Below are positions 1,540 to 44,424 of a stretch of DNA of 45,161 nt, one piece after another. Origin of the DNA: Escherichia phage KW1E_UTAR; sequence record MZ506873, one strand, 5' to 3'. Positions within the stretch are counted from its first letter, which is position 1. Every line of letters begins with the position of its first letter. The notes under the pieces are model-generated. The model had not been told where the DNA came from. It did no database searches and saw only the letters and a list, made by a program, of their open reading frames with translations. A program made the translations under genes and the position numbers.

Positions 1540-1801
1540 ACGCCAGGTATGGGAGGCGGCTAAGGCCGCCGAAATGGACGCATTCATCGGTGCCGTATCG
1601 AAGGCGTTCGGTAGCGACGCTATCGCGGAAGTGTCCATCACTGCTGGCGGGTATATAACCGCCACAAGCGACGACATGCTGGTCGAGCCTGAACGCGTGA
1701 ACATCTGCCCGATTGAAAATCGCATCAGGGACAGAATGGCGGATGTGTGGCGGATAAGAATATCCGCTATGCGTAATAATCCGCTTGTTGTTCCGAAGTG
1801 A
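1508..1801 (+). CDS. hypothetical protein
   Basis: 97-aa ORF overlapping the 3' end of the methyltransferase gene; start uncertain (1508 or 1526). Confidence 0.35.
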   Translation: MKRRSAMAHSKRQVWEAAKAAEMDAFIGAVSKAFGSDAIAEVSITAGGYITATSDDMLVEPERVNICPIENRIRDRMADVWRIRISAMRNNPLVVPK

Positions 1802-1816
1802 ATACGCTATATTACA

Positions 1817-1844
1817 AGGACCGAATAAATGGTCCTTTTTTATT
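1817..1844 (+). terminator. rho-independent terminator
   Basis: AGGACC-gaataaat-GGTCCT hairpin followed by TTTTTTATT. Confidence 0.6.
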
Positions 1845-1857
1845 GTCTGGAGAAAAT

Positions 1858-2520
1858 ATGTCATTCGCTCAATTTATACTGAAGAAGGTGGATAATGGTT
1901 CCGCCGCTGAAGCTGAAGTTCTGAAGCGTAGGAAGGCAGAAGGCCGGGCCGGGCTACCGAAGGCAGCGCCGAAGAAACGCGGACCTAAAGCGAAGTGGAC
2001 GCCGGAGCGCGACGAGCGACTTAAGAACCTGGCGCGCAGATATACCGGGCCGGAGATCGCCGAAAAGATGGGCCTGACTTACTGTTCCGTCAGGACTCGC
2101 GCTTCACGTATAGGCGTAAAGCTGATTGGTCATCGCGGCAAGTACCACGAATGGACTCATGAAGAAGTAGAGCTTGTCAAAATCATGAGGGAGAAGGGTT
2201 ACACGTCGGTTGAGATCGGGAAGGTCCTGAAGGTCAGCGATATCCAGGTTCGCGGCACAATCCACAGAATGAAACTTCCGGCGCTCAGGAAGAAGTGGTC
2301 GCTTGAAATGGAATACGCTGTCGCCGCTTACTACAAGGAGAAGGACAGCACGATCCTGGAGTTCGTTCTCAAGATCAAGAAGTCATCCCTACATTCACGA
2401 TATGGTCGACTATCTGCAATGCGTCGACTGTCTCACCTTCGCGGCCTGAAGAACGTCAAGGATCTGGTGGCTGAATACTGCGAAAAGAAAGGCATTGCAT
2501 TACCATCGCGTAATAGTTAA
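1858..2520 (+). CDS. DNA-binding protein with two tandem GcrA-like HTH repeats
   Basis: Repeats KWTPERDERLKNLARRYTGPEIAEKMGLTYCSVRTRASRIGVKL and EWTHEEVELVKIMREKGYTSVEIGKVLKVSDIQVRGTIHRMKL match the GcrA N-terminal pattern as I recall it; start ATG 1858 after GGAG. Confidence 0.5.
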   Translation: MSFAQFILKKVDNGSAAEAEVLKRRKAEGRAGLPKAAPKKRGPKAKWTPERDERLKNLARRYTGPEIAEKMGLTYCSVRTRASRIGVKLIGHRGKYHEWTHEEVELVKIMREKGYTSVEIGKVLKVSDIQVRGTIHRMKLPALRKKWSLEMEYAVAAYYKEKDSTILEFVLKIKKSSLHSRYGRLSAMRRLSHLRGLKNVKDLVAEYCEKKGIALPSRNS

Positions 2521-2904: not shown

Positions 2905-3434
2905 AGCCGATCACCATCAACCTATCAGACGACGACATCGAATTCGCCTACTACCTTAATGGTAGGGAAGAGACATTCGCGAAGAGTTTAAGCCAGTGCA
3001 GCCCGGACAGTCGGGCTGTGGGAATACTGGGGGAAATGGCGGCGACTCACTTCCTTCGTGGAATGTACGGGACGAAGCGATCTGTCGTTCCTATGGGGCT
3101 GTCTGCCCGCGCTGGCGGCGGCCTTAACGCTTACGGAATGGGTGACATCATCACCGTGATGAACGGCTCGCCCTCCCACAGGACGAAGGAGGTTCACACG
3201 TTCGAAGTGAAGGCGCGCACCGCTGGTGCAGGTAAGGGAAACCTTGTTCGATGTGACAGCGCCGAACAGTATCAGGAGTCCGGCATTATGCGCGTCATCT
3301 TCGTGGACGTCGATGTCCAGCCTGATCGTGCAGTCTGCCAGATCGTCGGCTACCATCAGCCTGAAGACATCCTTGAATGGGACGTGGTCACAAATGGCAT
3401 GGGTCAGGAATGCTATATCATGCCCGTAATTTGA
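2901..3434 (+). CDS. hypothetical protein, possible PD-(D/E)XK (VRR-NUC-like) nuclease
   Basis: GTG start overlapping upstream stop; GMGDIIT...FEVK...SAEQ...RVIFV resembles a D...(E)xK nuclease core. Confidence 0.45.
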   Translation: MKPITINLSDDDIEFAYYLNGREETFAKSLSQCSPDSRAVGILGEMAATHFLRGMYGTKRSVVPMGLSARAGGGLNAYGMGDIITVMNGSPSHRTKEVHTFEVKARTAGAGKGNLVRCDSAEQYQESGIMRVIFVDVDVQPDRAVCQIVGYHQPEDILEWDVVTNGMGQECYIMPVI

Positions 3435-3459
3435 CCGACAAGATCCACGGCGTTACTAT

Positions 3460-3490
3460 TCCCCGGACTAACACTTCGGGGATTTTTTTT
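3460..3490 (+). terminator. rho-independent terminator
   Basis: TCCCCG-gactaacactt-CGGGGA hairpin followed by a T8 run. Confidence 0.55.
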
Positions 3491-3766
3491 ATGCATAAGA
3501 TGCTATGGGTCGCTATCGCTGGCCTGGTCGGGGCCATCATCGGGATGTTCCGTTCCAAGGCTGACACTCTCACACAGCGCGCTTCGTTCGTCCTGTTCGG
3601 ATTCGCCGCGTCAATCTTCCTGACTCCGCTGGCTGCCCGCTGGTTCGGTCTGGGTGACATTTACGAGGTCGGCGGCGCTGGCTTCATTATCGGCATGTTC
3701 TGGATTGCTATTCTGGACCGGGTGAAGCAAGCTATGACGGACGGTAAATTACCGGAGGTCAAATAA
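3491..3766 (+). CDS. putative holin (three predicted transmembrane segments)
   Basis: Small hydrophobic protein (MHKMLWVAIAGLVGAIIGMF...) immediately upstream of the endolysin cassette; no clear SD. Confidence 0.5.
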   Translation: MHKMLWVAIAGLVGAIIGMFRSKADTLTQRASFVLFGFAASIFLTPLAARWFGLGDIYEVGGAGFIIGMFWIAILDRVKQAMTDGKLPEVK

Positions 3767-10825: not shown

Positions 10826-11121
10826 TTAAGACAATACAGCATAGACGCGGCGCGCGCAACGTTCCGACGTCTAAAACATGCATATTACGACCTCACTATC
10901 AGTATGTTGTTTAACCACAGTAAGACAAAAATCCCAAAAGTGGCCCGATATCAATGACTTACGCGTGTCTTAACTTTCCGCCCCCTAATAAATAAAAACA
11001 AGTAAGACAAAACACCTCACGCGTACACTTAACTACTATATATTCCACCCTTGAGGGGTGGATATATATTAGTAGTGTGTAATAAGTGCATCTTGAGGAA
11101 AACAGACAGTCTTGTCTTAAC
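10826..11121. repeat. Cluster of five TAAGACA/TGTCTTA iteron-like repeats in an AT-rich divergent intergenic region
   Basis: TAAGACA at 10827, 10921, 11003; reverse complement at 10966, 11113; palindrome CCACCCttgagGGGTGG at 11045-11061. Confidence 0.6.
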
Positions 11122-11152: not shown

Positions 11153-11161
11153 TGATATAAT
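11153..11161 (+). promoter_or_regulatory. extended -10 promoter element (TGaTATAAT)
   Basis: Perfect TATAAT at 11156-11161 preceded by TG at 11153-11154; about 22 nt upstream of the ATG at 11184. Confidence 0.4.
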
Positions 11162-39110: not shown

Positions 39111-39139
39111 AAAAAGGGGCCGAAAGGCCCCTATTTTTT
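39109..39139. terminator. bidirectional rho-independent terminator
   Basis: A7-AGGGGCC-gaaa-GGCCCCT-ATTTTTT between convergent tail fibre (+) and replication-block (-) transcription. Confidence 0.65.
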
Positions 39140-39467: not shown

Positions 39468-39496
39468 ATTATCACGGCCCCGTCATTATTGTCTAA
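39468..39496 (-). promoter_or_regulatory. sigma70-like promoter (TTAGAC-N17-GATAAT) for the HTH gene, overlapped by a short GC-clamped inverted repeat
   Basis: Minus strand reads TTAGACaataatgacggggccgtGATAAT; GGGCC...GGCCC at 39461-39480. Confidence 0.4.
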
Positions 39497-40744: not shown

Positions 40745-40770
40745 GGCGTAATATACCAATATATTACGCC
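40745..40770. promoter_or_regulatory. perfect 11-bp inverted repeat with 4-bp spacer (GGCGTAATATA ccaa TATATTACGCC) in the ERF leader
   Basis: Read directly; lies between exonuclease and ERF genes on the transcribed minus strand. Confidence 0.5.
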
Positions 40771-40780
40771 TGACACAATA

Positions 40781-41851
40781 TTATTTAGCTGTTTCCAGAT
40801 CTTCCCAAAGGTGCTTAAACTCACGTTCAACGTAGAACGGAGGGTCAAGATCGATCGGGTTCCCACCGCCGTATGTCGTCCAGTGGTCGTTATCCTTCGC
40901 GAACTTGTACATCGCCAGCGCCTGGCGAAGCGCCGCTGTACCGATAAGCAGGGTCTTGCGCGTCATGCGGAACTCTTCAGGGATGAACGGCGCGTCCTTT
41001 TCCTGCGCCAGCAGAACGACGCCTTTCGGGTTACGTCCCCACACTGCCCGGAACGCGTGGAACTGAAGCGCCATTTTCATATGGTAGCCCAGATCGAACG
41101 CCTTCCGGCGGAACTTGTCCGTCTGACATGAATCAGTCGTCTTGTAGTCCCAGATCTCACCGTCATCTGTCAGGCGGTCCCAGCGGACCTTAACCTTTAC
41201 GCCGAACAGTTCGAAGAAGACAGACACTTCAGACTTACCGCCGTGAATGACGCGGTGATACTGTGGGTTATTCAGGATGACTTCGCGCATCCTCATACAC
41301 TTGTCGAAGTCCTCCGCCGGGACCTGTACGCGTTCACCTGCTTCTTCCTTCGCAGCCTTCTCGACCTCATGCCAGAAGACAGGCATCACTTCATCACCGC
41401 CGTTTTCCTGGGAGGAAATGACAGCCTGACGGATTGTTTCCGCCAGCGCTGCAGGATCACTATTTGAGCGCCCGGCAAGTCCGCGCTCTTTGGCCCATCG
41501 TTGCATGGCAGCCACAGACGTCAGTGGCGCGAAGGTGACATTCCCTTCGTCGTCGCGGGTCGTGTAGTCCTCAGGGCAAGGCATACGGAAGAACTCAGCG
41601 TCGAAGCGATCAGGTTCAAGCATCATGGCGTGTGACGTGGTCCCAAAGACCAGCGCCTTCGACTTCTGCTTCTTCTCTTCGCTGTCCTCATAGCGCCATT
41701 TTGCCAAGCATAGCTGGTACATCTTCCATAATGAAGTCCCGCTTATATGGTCTTCGTCCTTGTGGTAGTCTTCGTTGCTCAGTTCGTCAGCGTAGAAGAT
41801 GATCGGCTGATATGGCTCCGGCGCTACTTGATCGATAATCTGGTCTGTCAT
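40781..41851 (-). CDS. recombination exonuclease, PD-(D/E)XK superfamily
   Basis: VRWDRLTDDGEIWDYKTT resembles a D...(D/E)xK core; sits beside ERF and SSB; start chosen at ATG 41851 after GAGGAAA (track 41911). Confidence 0.65.
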   Translation of the reverse strand: MTDQIIDQVAPEPYQPIIFYADELSNEDYHKDEDHISGTSLWKMYQLCLAKWRYEDSEEKKQKSKALVFGTTSHAMMLEPDRFDAEFFRMPCPEDYTTRDDEGNVTFAPLTSVAAMQRWAKERGLAGRSNSDPAALAETIRQAVISSQENGGDEVMPVFWHEVEKAAKEEAGERVQVPAEDFDKCMRMREVILNNPQYHRVIHGGKSEVSVFFELFGVKVKVRWDRLTDDGEIWDYKTTDSCQTDKFRRKAFDLGYHMKMALQFHAFRAVWGRNPKGVVLLAQEKDAPFIPEEFRMTRKTLLIGTAALRQALAMYKFAKDNDHWTTYGGGNPIDLDPPFYVEREFKHLWEDLETAK

Positions 41852-41871
41852 GTTATGTTTCCTCTGCAAAT

Positions 41872-41898
41872 AAAAAAAGGGGCCTTCTATCCGGCCCC
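41872..41898 (-). terminator. minus-strand hairpin plus U7 (internal terminator or attenuator)
   Basis: Minus strand reads GGGGCC-ggatagaa-GGCCCC followed by TTTTTTT, between the VRR-NUC-like and exonuclease genes. Confidence 0.45.
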
Positions 41899-41907
41899 TG
41901 TAATATC

Positions 41908-42378
41908 TCATTCTGTGATTACGCCGTCAAGATACCAGCGCATAAAAATCATAAAACTTTTCCATCCATAGCAGACGACGCCGAACCCTCCGCCTTTTAT
42001 GGACTTCACCAGCCATTCAGATTGTTCTTCGCTTACCGCCGAAGCTAGTGTCTTCGTGGCCCGCTTTAACTCCACAGCGGCGAACCCGAACCGCCCACAG
42101 TGGGACCTGTGATTCACCTGGATGTCACTCGCTCCCTTCTCAAGTCCCATCTGGCGAAGCTGGCTTCTGTACTGCGCCGGAAGGTCTGCCGACTCGTTCA
42201 CGATGTGGCAGATAGCGACGTCCTTCCAGTGCTTCCGCCAGTGGCTAGCGCAGTCGATTTGGTGTAGCTTTTCGACGCGCTTGTCGGTCTTGTCCATGCT
42301 GTAAAGTTCGCAATATCCAGCGGGGTTCATGGACAGCGCCAGCGGGATCCTGTTCTTGTCAGATATCAAACGATTCAT
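41908..42378 (-). CDS. VRR-NUC-like nuclease (tentative)
   Basis: GASDIQV...FAAVELKRA...SEEQSEW...GGGFGVVCYG resembles VRR-NUC; follows the helicase with a 20-nt overlap. Confidence 0.5.
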   Translation of the reverse strand: MNRLISDKNRIPLALSMNPAGYCELYSMDKTDKRVEKLHQIDCASHWRKHWKDVAICHIVNESADLPAQYRSQLRQMGLEKGASDIQVNHRSHCGRFGFAAVELKRATKTLASAVSEEQSEWLVKSIKGGGFGVVCYGWKSFMIFMRWYLDGVITE

Positions 42379-44350
42379 CTACAAATACCTTTCTTGTAAT
42401 AACGTCTTTACGACCATTTTCCACCTTTCTGTGGGTCACTTTTACCGGTGCCATAAATTTATGGATGTGGCCCATTAATGCCTTTGCGTCCCTGATCTTC
42501 GACAGCGCGGCTCGCTCTTTCGGGTCCAGGACGTGCTTGTTAATGCCATTGTTGCGCCAGTGCATCCTTGCCCCTGGGTTCGTACTGGCGGGCCAGAATA
42601 TTTCCCACGCTCTGAAGGTGGCTTCGCCCTGGTTCCCGATGTCATAGCAGAACGCCAGGCCAGCGCCGTCCTTCGTCGGCTCGATCTTGAACCCACGGAC
42701 GTTGACGAAGTCGTCCTGTGTGTAGTTCTTCCGGTCAAGCTGCTTGTTAGGGTCAATAAGGCGCGCGCCACATCCACGACAGAACCGCGCGACAATGTCG
42801 TTCTCCACGCCACATCCGGCCTGAATGAATTCACCGCGATCGCCGTGAACGTCTTCGCACACGCGGGACTTCCAGAAGTATTCACAGCGCGCTTCGCTGC
42901 CGTCCGGCTGGGTAATCATGTTCGAACAGCGGCGGGCGTGTTCGCCGTTCTGGTGTCCACAGTCCGGGCAGTGCTTATATGACGCGTCACGGACGTCTTT
43001 CACGTACTGGTATTGCTCAAGCATCGGTGAGAAGTAAAGTTCAGCAAGGCAGTCCATAGCCCCGGCGTAGTCCAGAACCAGGTTGTTAATCTTCACGATA
43101 CCCAGTTCGACGTGGTAGTCCTTCAGTTTGCGCATACCGCGCCCGATAAGCTGGGTGATTAGCGTCAAGCTGCCAATCCTGCGAAGGATGACTATCGTGT
43201 CCCACGGCGGAACGTTCACACCAGTGGTAAGACAACCCACCTGGAATATGAACTTCAGCTTCCCGTCATAAGCCTCTTTCAGCATCCGGCGGCGATCTGC
43301 TTTTGAGGTCTTATCTGTCACGATGCCGTATGACACGCCAGGCGGAAGCGCTGCCGCCGCTTCCTGGCAGTGTTTTTGCCCGGCACACGTAACCAGTACA
43401 CAGTTGCGGTTCTTCGTCTTCTCTACCACATCCAGCATGATCTTCTGTGTCATGCTGCCCTGCGCAAGTATGCGCTTCTGCATTTCGTTTAGCTGCGCGT
43501 CGCTGAAGTCACCAGCCCCGTCATTGCCGTCACTTTCGAACCCTTCCAGATCGTAGGTCATTTCCTCTTCGATGGTCCCGAAGTCAGTCGGAACTACCGC
43601 GCCGAAGTCGACCAGATATTCCGTGGAAATATCCACGATGACCTTACGCCAGAATCCTGGCGTCGACATGTCCGTGTTCACGATCGGCTGTATGCCACGA
43701 TAGTCTGTTCCGGTGTACCCGATGACGACTAGCGGCTTCCCGTACTTTTCCATGCATCGGCGCTGTAGTTCACGGATGATAAGGGTGTAGCCTTTGCGTC
43801 CGGCATCAATCATCTTTTCAAGCGTGTCTTCTGGGTGGTAAGCCCGGCCCTTCTTCTGGACCATAGTTTCCTGTGAGTCGACCAGGTCGTCGACGTCGAC
43901 ATGGTGGCATTCATCGATCGCCAGTATGCGCGGGACGTAGTCCTTCAGTCGCTTGTTCAACGCATTAACGACGGTCCCTTCCGACCCGACAATGACAGGG
44001 TAAAACGTGGACTTTCGACCCAGCGACGCGCAGAAGATGGAGTTCTCTACGCCGAAGTTGAGCATTTCGGCGGCGTCCTGTTCGACGATCTCACCCTGGC
44101 GTGAAAGAACCATCATTCCCCAGTTAATCTTTCGAGCGCGGCGCGCCAGCAGTGAAATCAGCGTGGTCTTACCTGCTGACACGGCAGCCTTGATAATGAA
44201 CGGGGCCTGATAGCCGTTTATCTCTTTCGATGTCTCGTTATGCGTGGCCCACTGGTATGAATACGGTTCGTATGGGGTCACGCCTACGCCAGCCTTCAGG
44301 CGTGACAGGTCCATGTCTGCAATCTGTTCAGTAATAGACTTTACCAACAT
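42359..44350 (-). CDS. superfamily-2 DNA helicase (DEAH-like) with C-terminal zinc ribbons
   Basis: Walker A AAVSAGKTT, DECH box LAIDECHHVD, CPDCGH...CRGCGARL zinc-ribbon-like motifs. Confidence 0.8.
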   Translation of the reverse strand: MLVKSITEQIADMDLSRLKAGVGVTPYEPYSYQWATHNETSKEINGYQAPFIIKAAVSAGKTTLISLLARRARKINWGMMVLSRQGEIVEQDAAEMLNFGVENSIFCASLGRKSTFYPVIVGSEGTVVNALNKRLKDYVPRILAIDECHHVDVDDLVDSQETMVQKKGRAYHPEDTLEKMIDAGRKGYTLIIRELQRRCMEKYGKPLVVIGYTGTDYRGIQPIVNTDMSTPGFWRKVIVDISTEYLVDFGAVVPTDFGTIEEEMTYDLEGFESDGNDGAGDFSDAQLNEMQKRILAQGSMTQKIMLDVVEKTKNRNCVLVTCAGQKHCQEAAAALPPGVSYGIVTDKTSKADRRRMLKEAYDGKLKFIFQVGCLTTGVNVPPWDTIVILRRIGSLTLITQLIGRGMRKLKDYHVELGIVKINNLVLDYAGAMDCLAELYFSPMLEQYQYVKDVRDASYKHCPDCGHQNGEHARRCSNMITQPDGSEARCEYFWKSRVCEDVHGDRGEFIQAGCGVENDIVARFCRGCGARLIDPNKQLDRKNYTQDDFVNVRGFKIEPTKDGAGLAFCYDIGNQGEATFRAWEIFWPASTNPGARMHWRNNGINKHVLDPKERAALSKIRDAKALMGHIHKFMAPVKVTHRKVENGRKDVITRKVFVDESFDI

Positions 44351-44424
44351 GTTTTTTGTCCTTGCGTTAATGAATGTTCGGTCGTATTCTGTGCCCGTAA
44401 TATTGATATGTCAAGGGGTATAAA

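Follow-up and report, generated by a model that had tools for sequence, protein, structure and literature searches.

Among the intrinsic terminators known from enterobacteria and their phages are internal ones that serve differential expression, such as T-phi of phage T7 and T1 of rpsU-dnaG-rpoD. The closest described relatives of the element reported here are the promoter-early stem-loop (PeSL) cassettes of T4-like phages, in which a sigma70-like promoter, a G/C stem-loop terminator and a Shine-Dalgarno (SD) sequence with its ATG are combined, and whose promoter and terminator activities were measured experimentally (PMC2839356; PMC4122927). PeSLs are present in T4-like myoviruses in dozens of copies, within hyperplastic ORFan regions, with a stem-loop that in most cases is placed between the -35 and -10 elements or over the -10, and they mediate modular shuffling, seen as indels at cassettes and as mini-circles (PMC2839356; PMC4122927). 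For bacteria, a preprint makes the general claim of genome-wide promoter-terminator coupling, with neighboring units starting and ending transcription at coupled, not independent, sites (bioRxiv 10.64898/2026.08.19.745784); the likeness we draw is to that general claim.

We analyzed the window, that is, the whole 45,161-nucleotide stretch of record MZ506873, which is 94% identical to phage vB_KM5a1-KLB22 and 84% identical to KLB16, both assigned to the proposed family Ca. Mavericviridae (PMC11845039). The relatives recovered also included an IMG/VR contig and another seven distinct contigs, with 77-97% identity in the exonuclease. As in PeSLs, a -35/-10 pair of sigma70-like character at 17 ± 1 nt adjoins a stem-loop that is followed by an SD and a start codon. 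This small intergenic composite has sequence-related copies in the genome, and relatives differ by indels at its position. Unlike PeSLs, it is found in three copies in a ~45-kb Klebsiella siphophage (Ca. Mavericviridae), between core replication, recombination and lysis genes; the stem lies downstream of the -10, over the predicted transcription start, and the activities proposed here are predictions from sequence. The features of the main junction and its surroundings are as follows:

41872-41899, minus strand: terminator-like hairpin with its U-tract, identified by letter reading, terminator scan, fold and compensatory changes in relatives
41908-42378, minus strand: VRR-NUC-like nuclease gene (156 aa, stop TGA at 41910-41908), a weak Pfam match called 'nuclease' in KLB22 and KLB16
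40781-41864, minus strand: ribosome-binding site (RBS) GAGGA at 41864-41860 and PDDEXK/RecE-like exonuclease gene, ATG at 41851-41849
42359-44414, minus strand: upstream unit with promoter-like TTGACA-17-CAGAAT (44414-44386) and a helicase gene (44350-42359)
39115-39132, minus strand: bidirectional terminator AGGGGCC-UUUC-GGCCCCU followed by U7, at the end of the unit after the ERF, SSB and HTH regulator genes and a small ORF

The original prediction placed a GGGGCC-8nt-GGCCCC-U7 hairpin on the minus strand at 41872-41898, between the VRR-NUC-like gene and the exonuclease, with the RBS and ATG of the latter coming directly after. On re-reading the sequence these coordinates proved exact, and the placement agrees with the TGA at 41910-41908, the GAGGA at 41864-41860 and the ATG at 41851. 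On the minus strand the 5′ arm is AGGGGCC (41899-41893, GGGGCC being 41898-41893), the loop GGAUAGAA has 8 nt (41892-41885) and the 3′ arm is GGCCCCU (41884-41878, GGCCCC being 41884-41879). An A-U closing pair (41899/41878) extends the stem to seven pairs, six of them G-C. The U7 run occupies 41878-41872 and is followed by an A and by UUU to 41868. The order of the junction is thus TGA, GATATTAC, A, GGGGCC, GGATAGAA, GGCCCC, TTTTTTT, ATTTGCAGAGGAAACATAAC, ATG. In the minus-strand reading of 41945-41845, the junction is preceded by TGG TAT CTT GAC GGC GTA ATC ACA GAA TGA, and the T-run continues into ATTTGCA, GAGGA, AACATAAC and ATG ACA GAC. The two genes are co-oriented and 56 nt apart; the hairpin lies 9 nt past the nuclease TGA on the sense strand, the RBS and ATG lie 14 and 27 nt downstream of the stem, and the plus strand is without terminator-like character. 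The G+C-rich stem, the adjoining U7 and the sense-strand position just past a stop codon are shared with Rho-independent terminators in general. A promoter-like element abutting the stem, an 8-nt loop with a conserved RAUA and a stem that outlasts its U-tract set it apart from plain intrinsic terminators.

The nuclease ORF matches the VRR_NUC Pfam family with E = 0.0045 and 17.5 bits, under the cutoff of 23.8; the label VRR-NUC-like is plausible, since homologs in locus L093 and in Pantoea phage PSKM are annotated or matched as VRR-NUC, but it is not established for this protein. The exonuclease has a DUF3799/PDDEXK match (E = 3.7e-24) and is annotated as exonuclease VIII in relatives, and the helicase matches ResIII/Helicase_C. 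Further co-oriented genes encode an ERF recombinase and an HTH_3 regulator (39432-39235) by Pfam match, and an SSB with a weak, sub-cutoff match (E = 0.0084) that is annotated as single-stranded DNA-binding protein in KLB22 and KLB16. The best two promoter-like sites of the region are TAGACA-16-GATAAT (39468-39495, minus strand), which precedes the HTH regulator gene, and the TTGACA-17-CAGAAT (44386-44414, minus strand) that precedes the helicase gene. Because both recur at equivalent places in the relative L085, the HTH regulator is probably transcribed from a separate promoter within the recombination unit.

Gene callers favor a 376-aa exonuclease ORF that starts at 41911 in an ATGA overlap with the nuclease stop and would make the hairpin coding. 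We rejected this longer ORF because a TAA closes the extension in KLB16 and a T-run shorter by 1 nt breaks the frame in the IMG/VR relative. The gap between the nuclease and exonuclease genes also varies among relatives by indels that are not multiples of 3. Judged by these comparisons, the stretch between the nuclease stop and the ATG at 41851 is non-coding. Identity to KLB22 is 92-96% and drops to ~62% across the cassette, owing to an insertion polymorphism at the exonuclease N terminus. This N terminus is polymorphic (window 41851-41760, minus strand, compared with L001 and L084-L091): a CxxC...HxC zinc-ribbon-like insertion just after the start is present in KLB22, L084-L086, L088, L089 and L091 and absent from the window, KLB16, L003 and L090. 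The distribution of the insertion is incongruent with nuclease-gene similarity, which points to a mosaic boundary at the cassette.

The stem motif is far more frequent than chance predicts. GGGGCC-N3-10-GGCCCC is found twice in the 45-kb window against 0.02 expected, none of 100 shuffles reached two copies, and both copies lie at gene ends with T7ATTT next on the minus strand. The junction hairpin is the first entry in the terminator-like scan of the window; it folds by itself with about -15 kcal/mol, and its 66-nt context folds with -18.5 kcal/mol (z = -2.46), a value equaled by 2 of 200 shuffles. A generic terminator scan of the whole window showed no enrichment (12 found, 13.7 expected), so that the argument is carried by the quality of this hairpin and its conservation. 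Concerted evolution with the identical stem of the unit-end terminator at 39132-39115 was ruled out, as the two do not co-vary in relatives. An Rfam search at a permissive E-value gave no match at the hairpin.

A stable hairpin occupies the equivalent place in all 10 distinct relatives, with fold energies from -10.7 to -15.6 kcal/mol, at least seven different stem sequences and an arm spacing that varies from 8 to 3 nt. In the KLB22 record the homologous site is marked as 'terminator', a label that stems from an annotation pipeline, not from experiment. In a hand-made structural alignment, both sides are altered in 5 of the 10 pairs, giving 11 cells with compensatory changes. The covariation score was 0.265 compared with 0.127 ± 0.026 in shuffled alignments (0 of 500) and at most 0.156 in slid controls, values to be read with the hand fitting of the alignment and the small number and close relationship of the relatives in mind. 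RNAalifold applied to an un-fitted alignment returned the identical helix with three compensatory pairs. Four cells hold G-U pairs, compatible only with the sense RNA; on the opposite strand they would be C-A mismatches, and the structure therefore belongs to the sense transcript. The loop keeps the conserved RAUA, a feature that plain termination does not call for. Together, the hairpin is well supported by comparative sequence evidence as an evolutionarily maintained, putative transcription-terminator structure. A conserved 20-mer (TGGTATCTTGACGGNGTAAT) sought in viral, metagenome and genome collections retrieved only the known IMG/VR contig and unrelated chance matches; a box-plus-stem pattern scan likewise returned only that contig, with no copies outside the KLB22/KLB16 clade.

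The sequence 3′ of the stem is U7 in the window and, in relatives, U5A, UUUUAAC or runs interrupted by A or G. Three to seven U immediately follow the stem in 9 of the 10 distinct relatives; the tract is interrupted in L003, L088 and L089, and in L091/L092 the hairpin is kept with no U-tract (AAUCAACG). A d'Aubenton-Carafa-type score was about +46 at the junction and +56 at the unit-end terminator, and ranged from +33 down to -41 in relatives. The junction terminator is thus predicted to be among the strongest in the window and not obviously leaky, and within the clade termination strength seems to have drifted while the stem stayed. Since the hairpin persists in L091/L092 without a U-tract, termination cannot be its sole selected role. 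The range from U7 to none at unchanged gene order is also hard to reconcile with a read-through tuned for downstream expression. With its G+C-rich stem, U-tract, sense placement after a stop codon and evolutionary maintenance, the hairpin looks like a Rho-independent terminator, predicted to be strong in this phage.

Immediately upstream of the stem lies a promoter-like element, hereafter P_exo:

41925-41930, minus strand: -35-like TTGACG in the last nuclease codons (Y-L-D-G), found by promoter scan and marked by invariant synonymous sites
41900-41907, minus strand: -10-like GATATT (41907-41902) followed by AC, holding the heptamer ATATTAC (41906-41900)

TTGACG-17-GATATT, with a TG preceding the -10, matches the consensus at 9 of 12 positions (9-10 of 12 in relatives). 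Promoter matches of this grade are at chance level across the region (7 found, 8.5 expected), so that a 9/12 match alone is unremarkable and the case for a promoter rests on its conservation pattern. In a codon alignment of the nuclease from 11 relatives, 11 of 80 degenerate columns with an invariant residue have an invariant codon, and four of these 11, TAT CTT GAC .. GTA, follow one another and contain the -35; among them are a six-fold degenerate Leu and a four-fold degenerate Val. Past the stop codon, relatives share a non-coding box nAnATTAC (GATATT, TATATT, TACATT or CATATT plus AC), in which A-11, T-7 and AC are invariant and the first base of the -10 is G, T or C. The 17-18-nt spacer between the two blocks, made of the last codons and the stop, varies in sequence. 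A conserved block, a variable spacer of fixed length and a second conserved block is the signature of a candidate promoter. Conservation around the -35 reaches past the hexamer (TGGTATC..GCGTAAT), and an operator or a recombination joint may account for part of this extended block. The -10 ends 2 nt ahead of the stem in the window and 2-5 nt ahead of it in relatives. Transcription usually starts 7 ± 1 nt past the -10, which would put the start at about 41896-41894, inside the 5′ arm. On these grounds the exonuclease and recombinase genes probably have a sigma70-type promoter of their own. Promoter-like sites are also found in relatives that have no terminator, either between the nuclease and exonuclease genes or where the exonuclease unit begins: TTGACT-17-TATTAT in L101 (10/12, the best site of that locus), TTGACT-17-TAATAT in L102 (9/12) and TTGATG-17-TAGATT in webervirus-like loci. 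This suggests that the promoter is older at this junction and the terminator clade-specific.

The heptamer ATATTAC is itself overrepresented about 7-fold, with 13 copies in the window against 1.9 expected:

plus strand: 174, 1809, 6383, 8644, 8660, 10882, 12296 and 40761
minus strand: 12345, 36249, 40748, 41900 and 44397

KLB22 has 14 copies against 2.2 expected, 12 of them intergenic. In the window, the next base is G at 9 of the 13 sites, and 5 of the 13 have a -35 matching at least 5 of 6 positions at 16-18 nt in one orientation, where ~0.4 would be expected. ATATTAC behaves as a shared -10/discriminator box (xATATT on one strand, TAATAT on the other) or as a putative operator half-site. 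Between the exonuclease and ERF genes, at 40745-40770, we noted a perfect 11-bp palindrome, GGCGTAATATA-TTGG-TATATTACGCC, which has no U-run and is made of the GGCGTAAT/ATATTAC boxes also present on either side of P_exo; a 52-aa ORF of KLB22 in this exonuclease-ERF region is absent from the window. The heptamer was also compared with T7-type promoters (site 10882 reads ATATTACGACCTCACTATCAG) and with the geminivirus nick site TAATATTAC. Both likenesses were rejected as coincidence because KLB22 has no annotated phage RNA polymerase or HUH Rep and the sequence downstream is not shared among the sites.

The window contains two further cassettes of the same layout:

1785-1860, plus strand: TTGTTG-17-TATATT-AC, stem arms AAGGACC/GGTCCTT (1816-1837), U-run, RBS and ATG at 1858
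3431-3493, plus strand: TTGACC-17-TACTAT, 7-bp hairpin at 3460-3482, U8 and ATG at 3491 of the holin gene

The first of these reads TATATTAC-A-AGGACC GAATAAAT GGTCCT-UUUUUAUUG-RBS-ATG and is a near-copy of the exonuclease cassette, in particular of its KLB16 version. This second cassette is kept in KLB22, KLB16 and the IMG/VR contig and precedes a gene annotated as 'DNA-binding protein' in KLB22; as with the exonuclease, ORF finders extend this gene (from a GTG at 1798) through the hairpin. The holin cassette is fully packed into 61 nt, its TTGACC overlapping the stop TGA at 3432-3434, and is nearly invariant in KLB22 and KLB16, where it is annotated as a terminator. Its only Shine-Dalgarno-like sequence is the GGGGA within the 3′ arm. 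An RNA reading through from upstream would therefore hide the SD, and one begun in the 5′ arm would expose it.

In all three cassettes the -10 box lies 0-2 nt ahead of the terminator stem, and the three align colinearly with each other and with one related promoter that has no hairpin. Among 18 strong strand-specific terminators, an abutting promoter-like site matching at least 8 of 12 positions was found at 5, against 0.25 expected, and one matching at least 9 of 12 at 2, against 0.06 expected. Abutment of promoter and terminator was weakly enriched in distant relatives (4 of 140 versus 0.83 expected). In distant phages with exonucleases 33-46% identical, the gene mostly abuts its upstream neighbor or is preceded by a gap without a hairpin. 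Pantoea phage PSKM (L070, 2950-3000) and the related locus L068 have an unrelated hairpin with a U-run between the VRR-NUC and exonuclease genes; in this PSKM/DIBBI group of myoviruses the hairpin differs compensatorily between the two phages, a -10-like TAGAAT or TATACT lies 1-2 nt ahead of the stem, and an SD (GAGG or GGGGAG) is contained in the 3′ arm. The cassette architecture of this group is apparently convergent. A 385-bp divergent intergenic region of the window holds a long inverted repeat, ACTACTATATAT-TCCACCC TTGAG GGGTGGA-TATATATTAGTAGT (11027-11080, plus strand), flanked by a repA-like gene (homolog of KLB22 MVRL019, 10774-9347, minus strand) and a cluster on the small-terminase side that begins at 11160 (plus strand); this repeat could be an origin or an operator.

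We propose, with a probability of roughly 0.55, that the junction cassette is a Rho-independent terminator of the helicase unit fused to an internal sigma70-type promoter, P_exo, uncoupling two transcription units; from the observed anatomy, conservation and covariation we infer termination, promoter activity and the start position. Transcripts from the helicase promoter, covering the helicase and the VRR-NUC-like nuclease, would end at the hairpin. P_exo would have its -35 in the final nuclease codons and its -10 just past the stop, 2 nt ahead of the stem. RNA polymerase recruited there would start about 7 nt past the -10, within the 5′ arm, so that the RNA would lack a complete hairpin, escape termination and pass the U-tract. 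The resulting transcript would cover the exonuclease, ERF recombinase, SSB and HTH regulator genes up to the terminator at 39132-39115. More tentatively, and somewhat short of an even chance, we envisage a broader reading: a dedicated cassette of this clade with the -10 abutting the stem and the start in the 5′ arm would terminate upstream RNA, would silence read-through translationally where the SD lies in the 3′ arm (the holin and PSKM exonuclease cases) and would let promoter-derived RNA be elongated and translated, with ATATTAC/GCGTAAT and RAUA marking a common phage-encoded regulator. No transcript maps, Term-seq or RNA data for the KLB22/KLB16 phage group were found in the literature.

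According to the original prediction, the hairpin may act as a partial terminator that sets helicase/nuclease against recombinase levels. Its terminator features and compensated stem bear out the first half of this proposal; leakiness and a ratio set within one operon are not borne out, and given the conserved promoter that overlaps the hairpin site, the ratio reading is probably incomplete. A leaky intrinsic terminator in a single operon without an internal promoter, at which read-through lowers exonuclease, ERF and SSB relative to helicase and nuclease, would account for a canonical hairpin with U7 between co-oriented genes 56 nt apart, and we consider it unlikely but worth weighing. The promoter match is a modest 9/12, and the 8-nt loop exceeds the tetraloops of the unit-end terminators; longer terminator loops tend to lower efficiency. 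Such a terminator leaves unexplained the frozen synonymous sites of the -35, the non-coding -10 box and the genome-wide enrichment of that box; the site is predicted to be strong in the window, and a tract ranging from U7 to none at constant gene order is hard to square with a tuned ratio. With a site predicted to be strong and a conserved promoter abutting it, a boundary between units reads better than an attenuator, and the hairpin is more likely to keep two transcription units apart than to turn down the latter half of an operon.

It is improbable, in our estimate, that the hairpin acts chiefly in RNA stability or processing, protecting the helicase/nuclease mRNA at its 3′ end or forming a 5′ stem-loop on the exonuclease mRNA, with termination incidental. 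Relatives with no U-tract (L091/L092) or an interrupted one (L003, L088, L089) still conserve the hairpin, which speaks for such a role, as do L088 and L091, in which the stem lies 5 nt past the -10 and a start ~7 nt downstream would leave most of it at the 5′ end. Yet 3-7 U directly follow the stem in 9 of 10 distinct relatives, with U7 in the window, and a stem 2 nt past the -10 means that promoter-derived RNA would lose more than half of the 5′ arm in most relatives. The inverted repeat might instead be a double-stranded DNA operator over the P_exo start, bound by the HTH regulator (39432-39235) or another phage DNA-binding protein: the palindrome is immediately downstream of the -10 box, the exonuclease/recombinase unit encodes an HTH_3 protein, and the inverted GGCGTAAT/ATATTAC half-sites that flank the promoter recur as the perfect palindrome at 40745-40770. 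We regard this as very improbable; the arms co-vary and their spacing ranges from 8 to 3 nt although the HTH protein family is retained, and the G-T pairs would turn into C-A mismatches when read from the opposite strand; both observations point to an RNA structure and away from a fixed protein site. A functionless chance repeat is hardly credible: generic terminator-like matches are indeed no commoner than in shuffles, but the specific motif is found twice against 0.02 expected, and the hairpin lies between genes on the sense strand and is kept among relatives through compensatory changes.

Two further kinds of regulatory RNA were considered. Nut sites of phage lambda are defined by a boxA consensus and a boxB with a 5-bp stem and a GNRA-like pentaloop. 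The arrangement at the junction, in which a hairpin with partial loop conservation comes after a conserved linear box (UAUAUUAC), resembles lambda nut and RAT/BglG-type terminators, a resemblance only; a lambda nut site was rejected, as the junction has neither the boxA consensus nor the 5-bp stem and GNRA-like pentaloop. An attenuator or riboswitch was rejected as well: no GGCCC(C) partner for the 5′ arm is present within 250 nt upstream, the minimum free energy fold keeps the terminator, and there is no Rfam match.

The fusion of terminator and P_exo that we favor is a compact but largely conventional way for a phage to control its genes. The junction analysis also corrects the start of the exonuclease gene, which gene callers place upstream of the hairpin. 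If the promoter-in-terminator geometry is real, the cassette would be a portable insulator that terminates and restarts transcription within ~60 bp, useful for phage engineering and synthetic biology. As a terminator the hairpin is routine; its value lies in annotation and in what it indicates about how small virulent phages dependent on the RNA polymerase of the host divide up their early, recombination and lysis genes compactly. If true, this reading would carry the PeSL concept beyond T4-like myoviruses, to a siphophage lineage unrelated to them.
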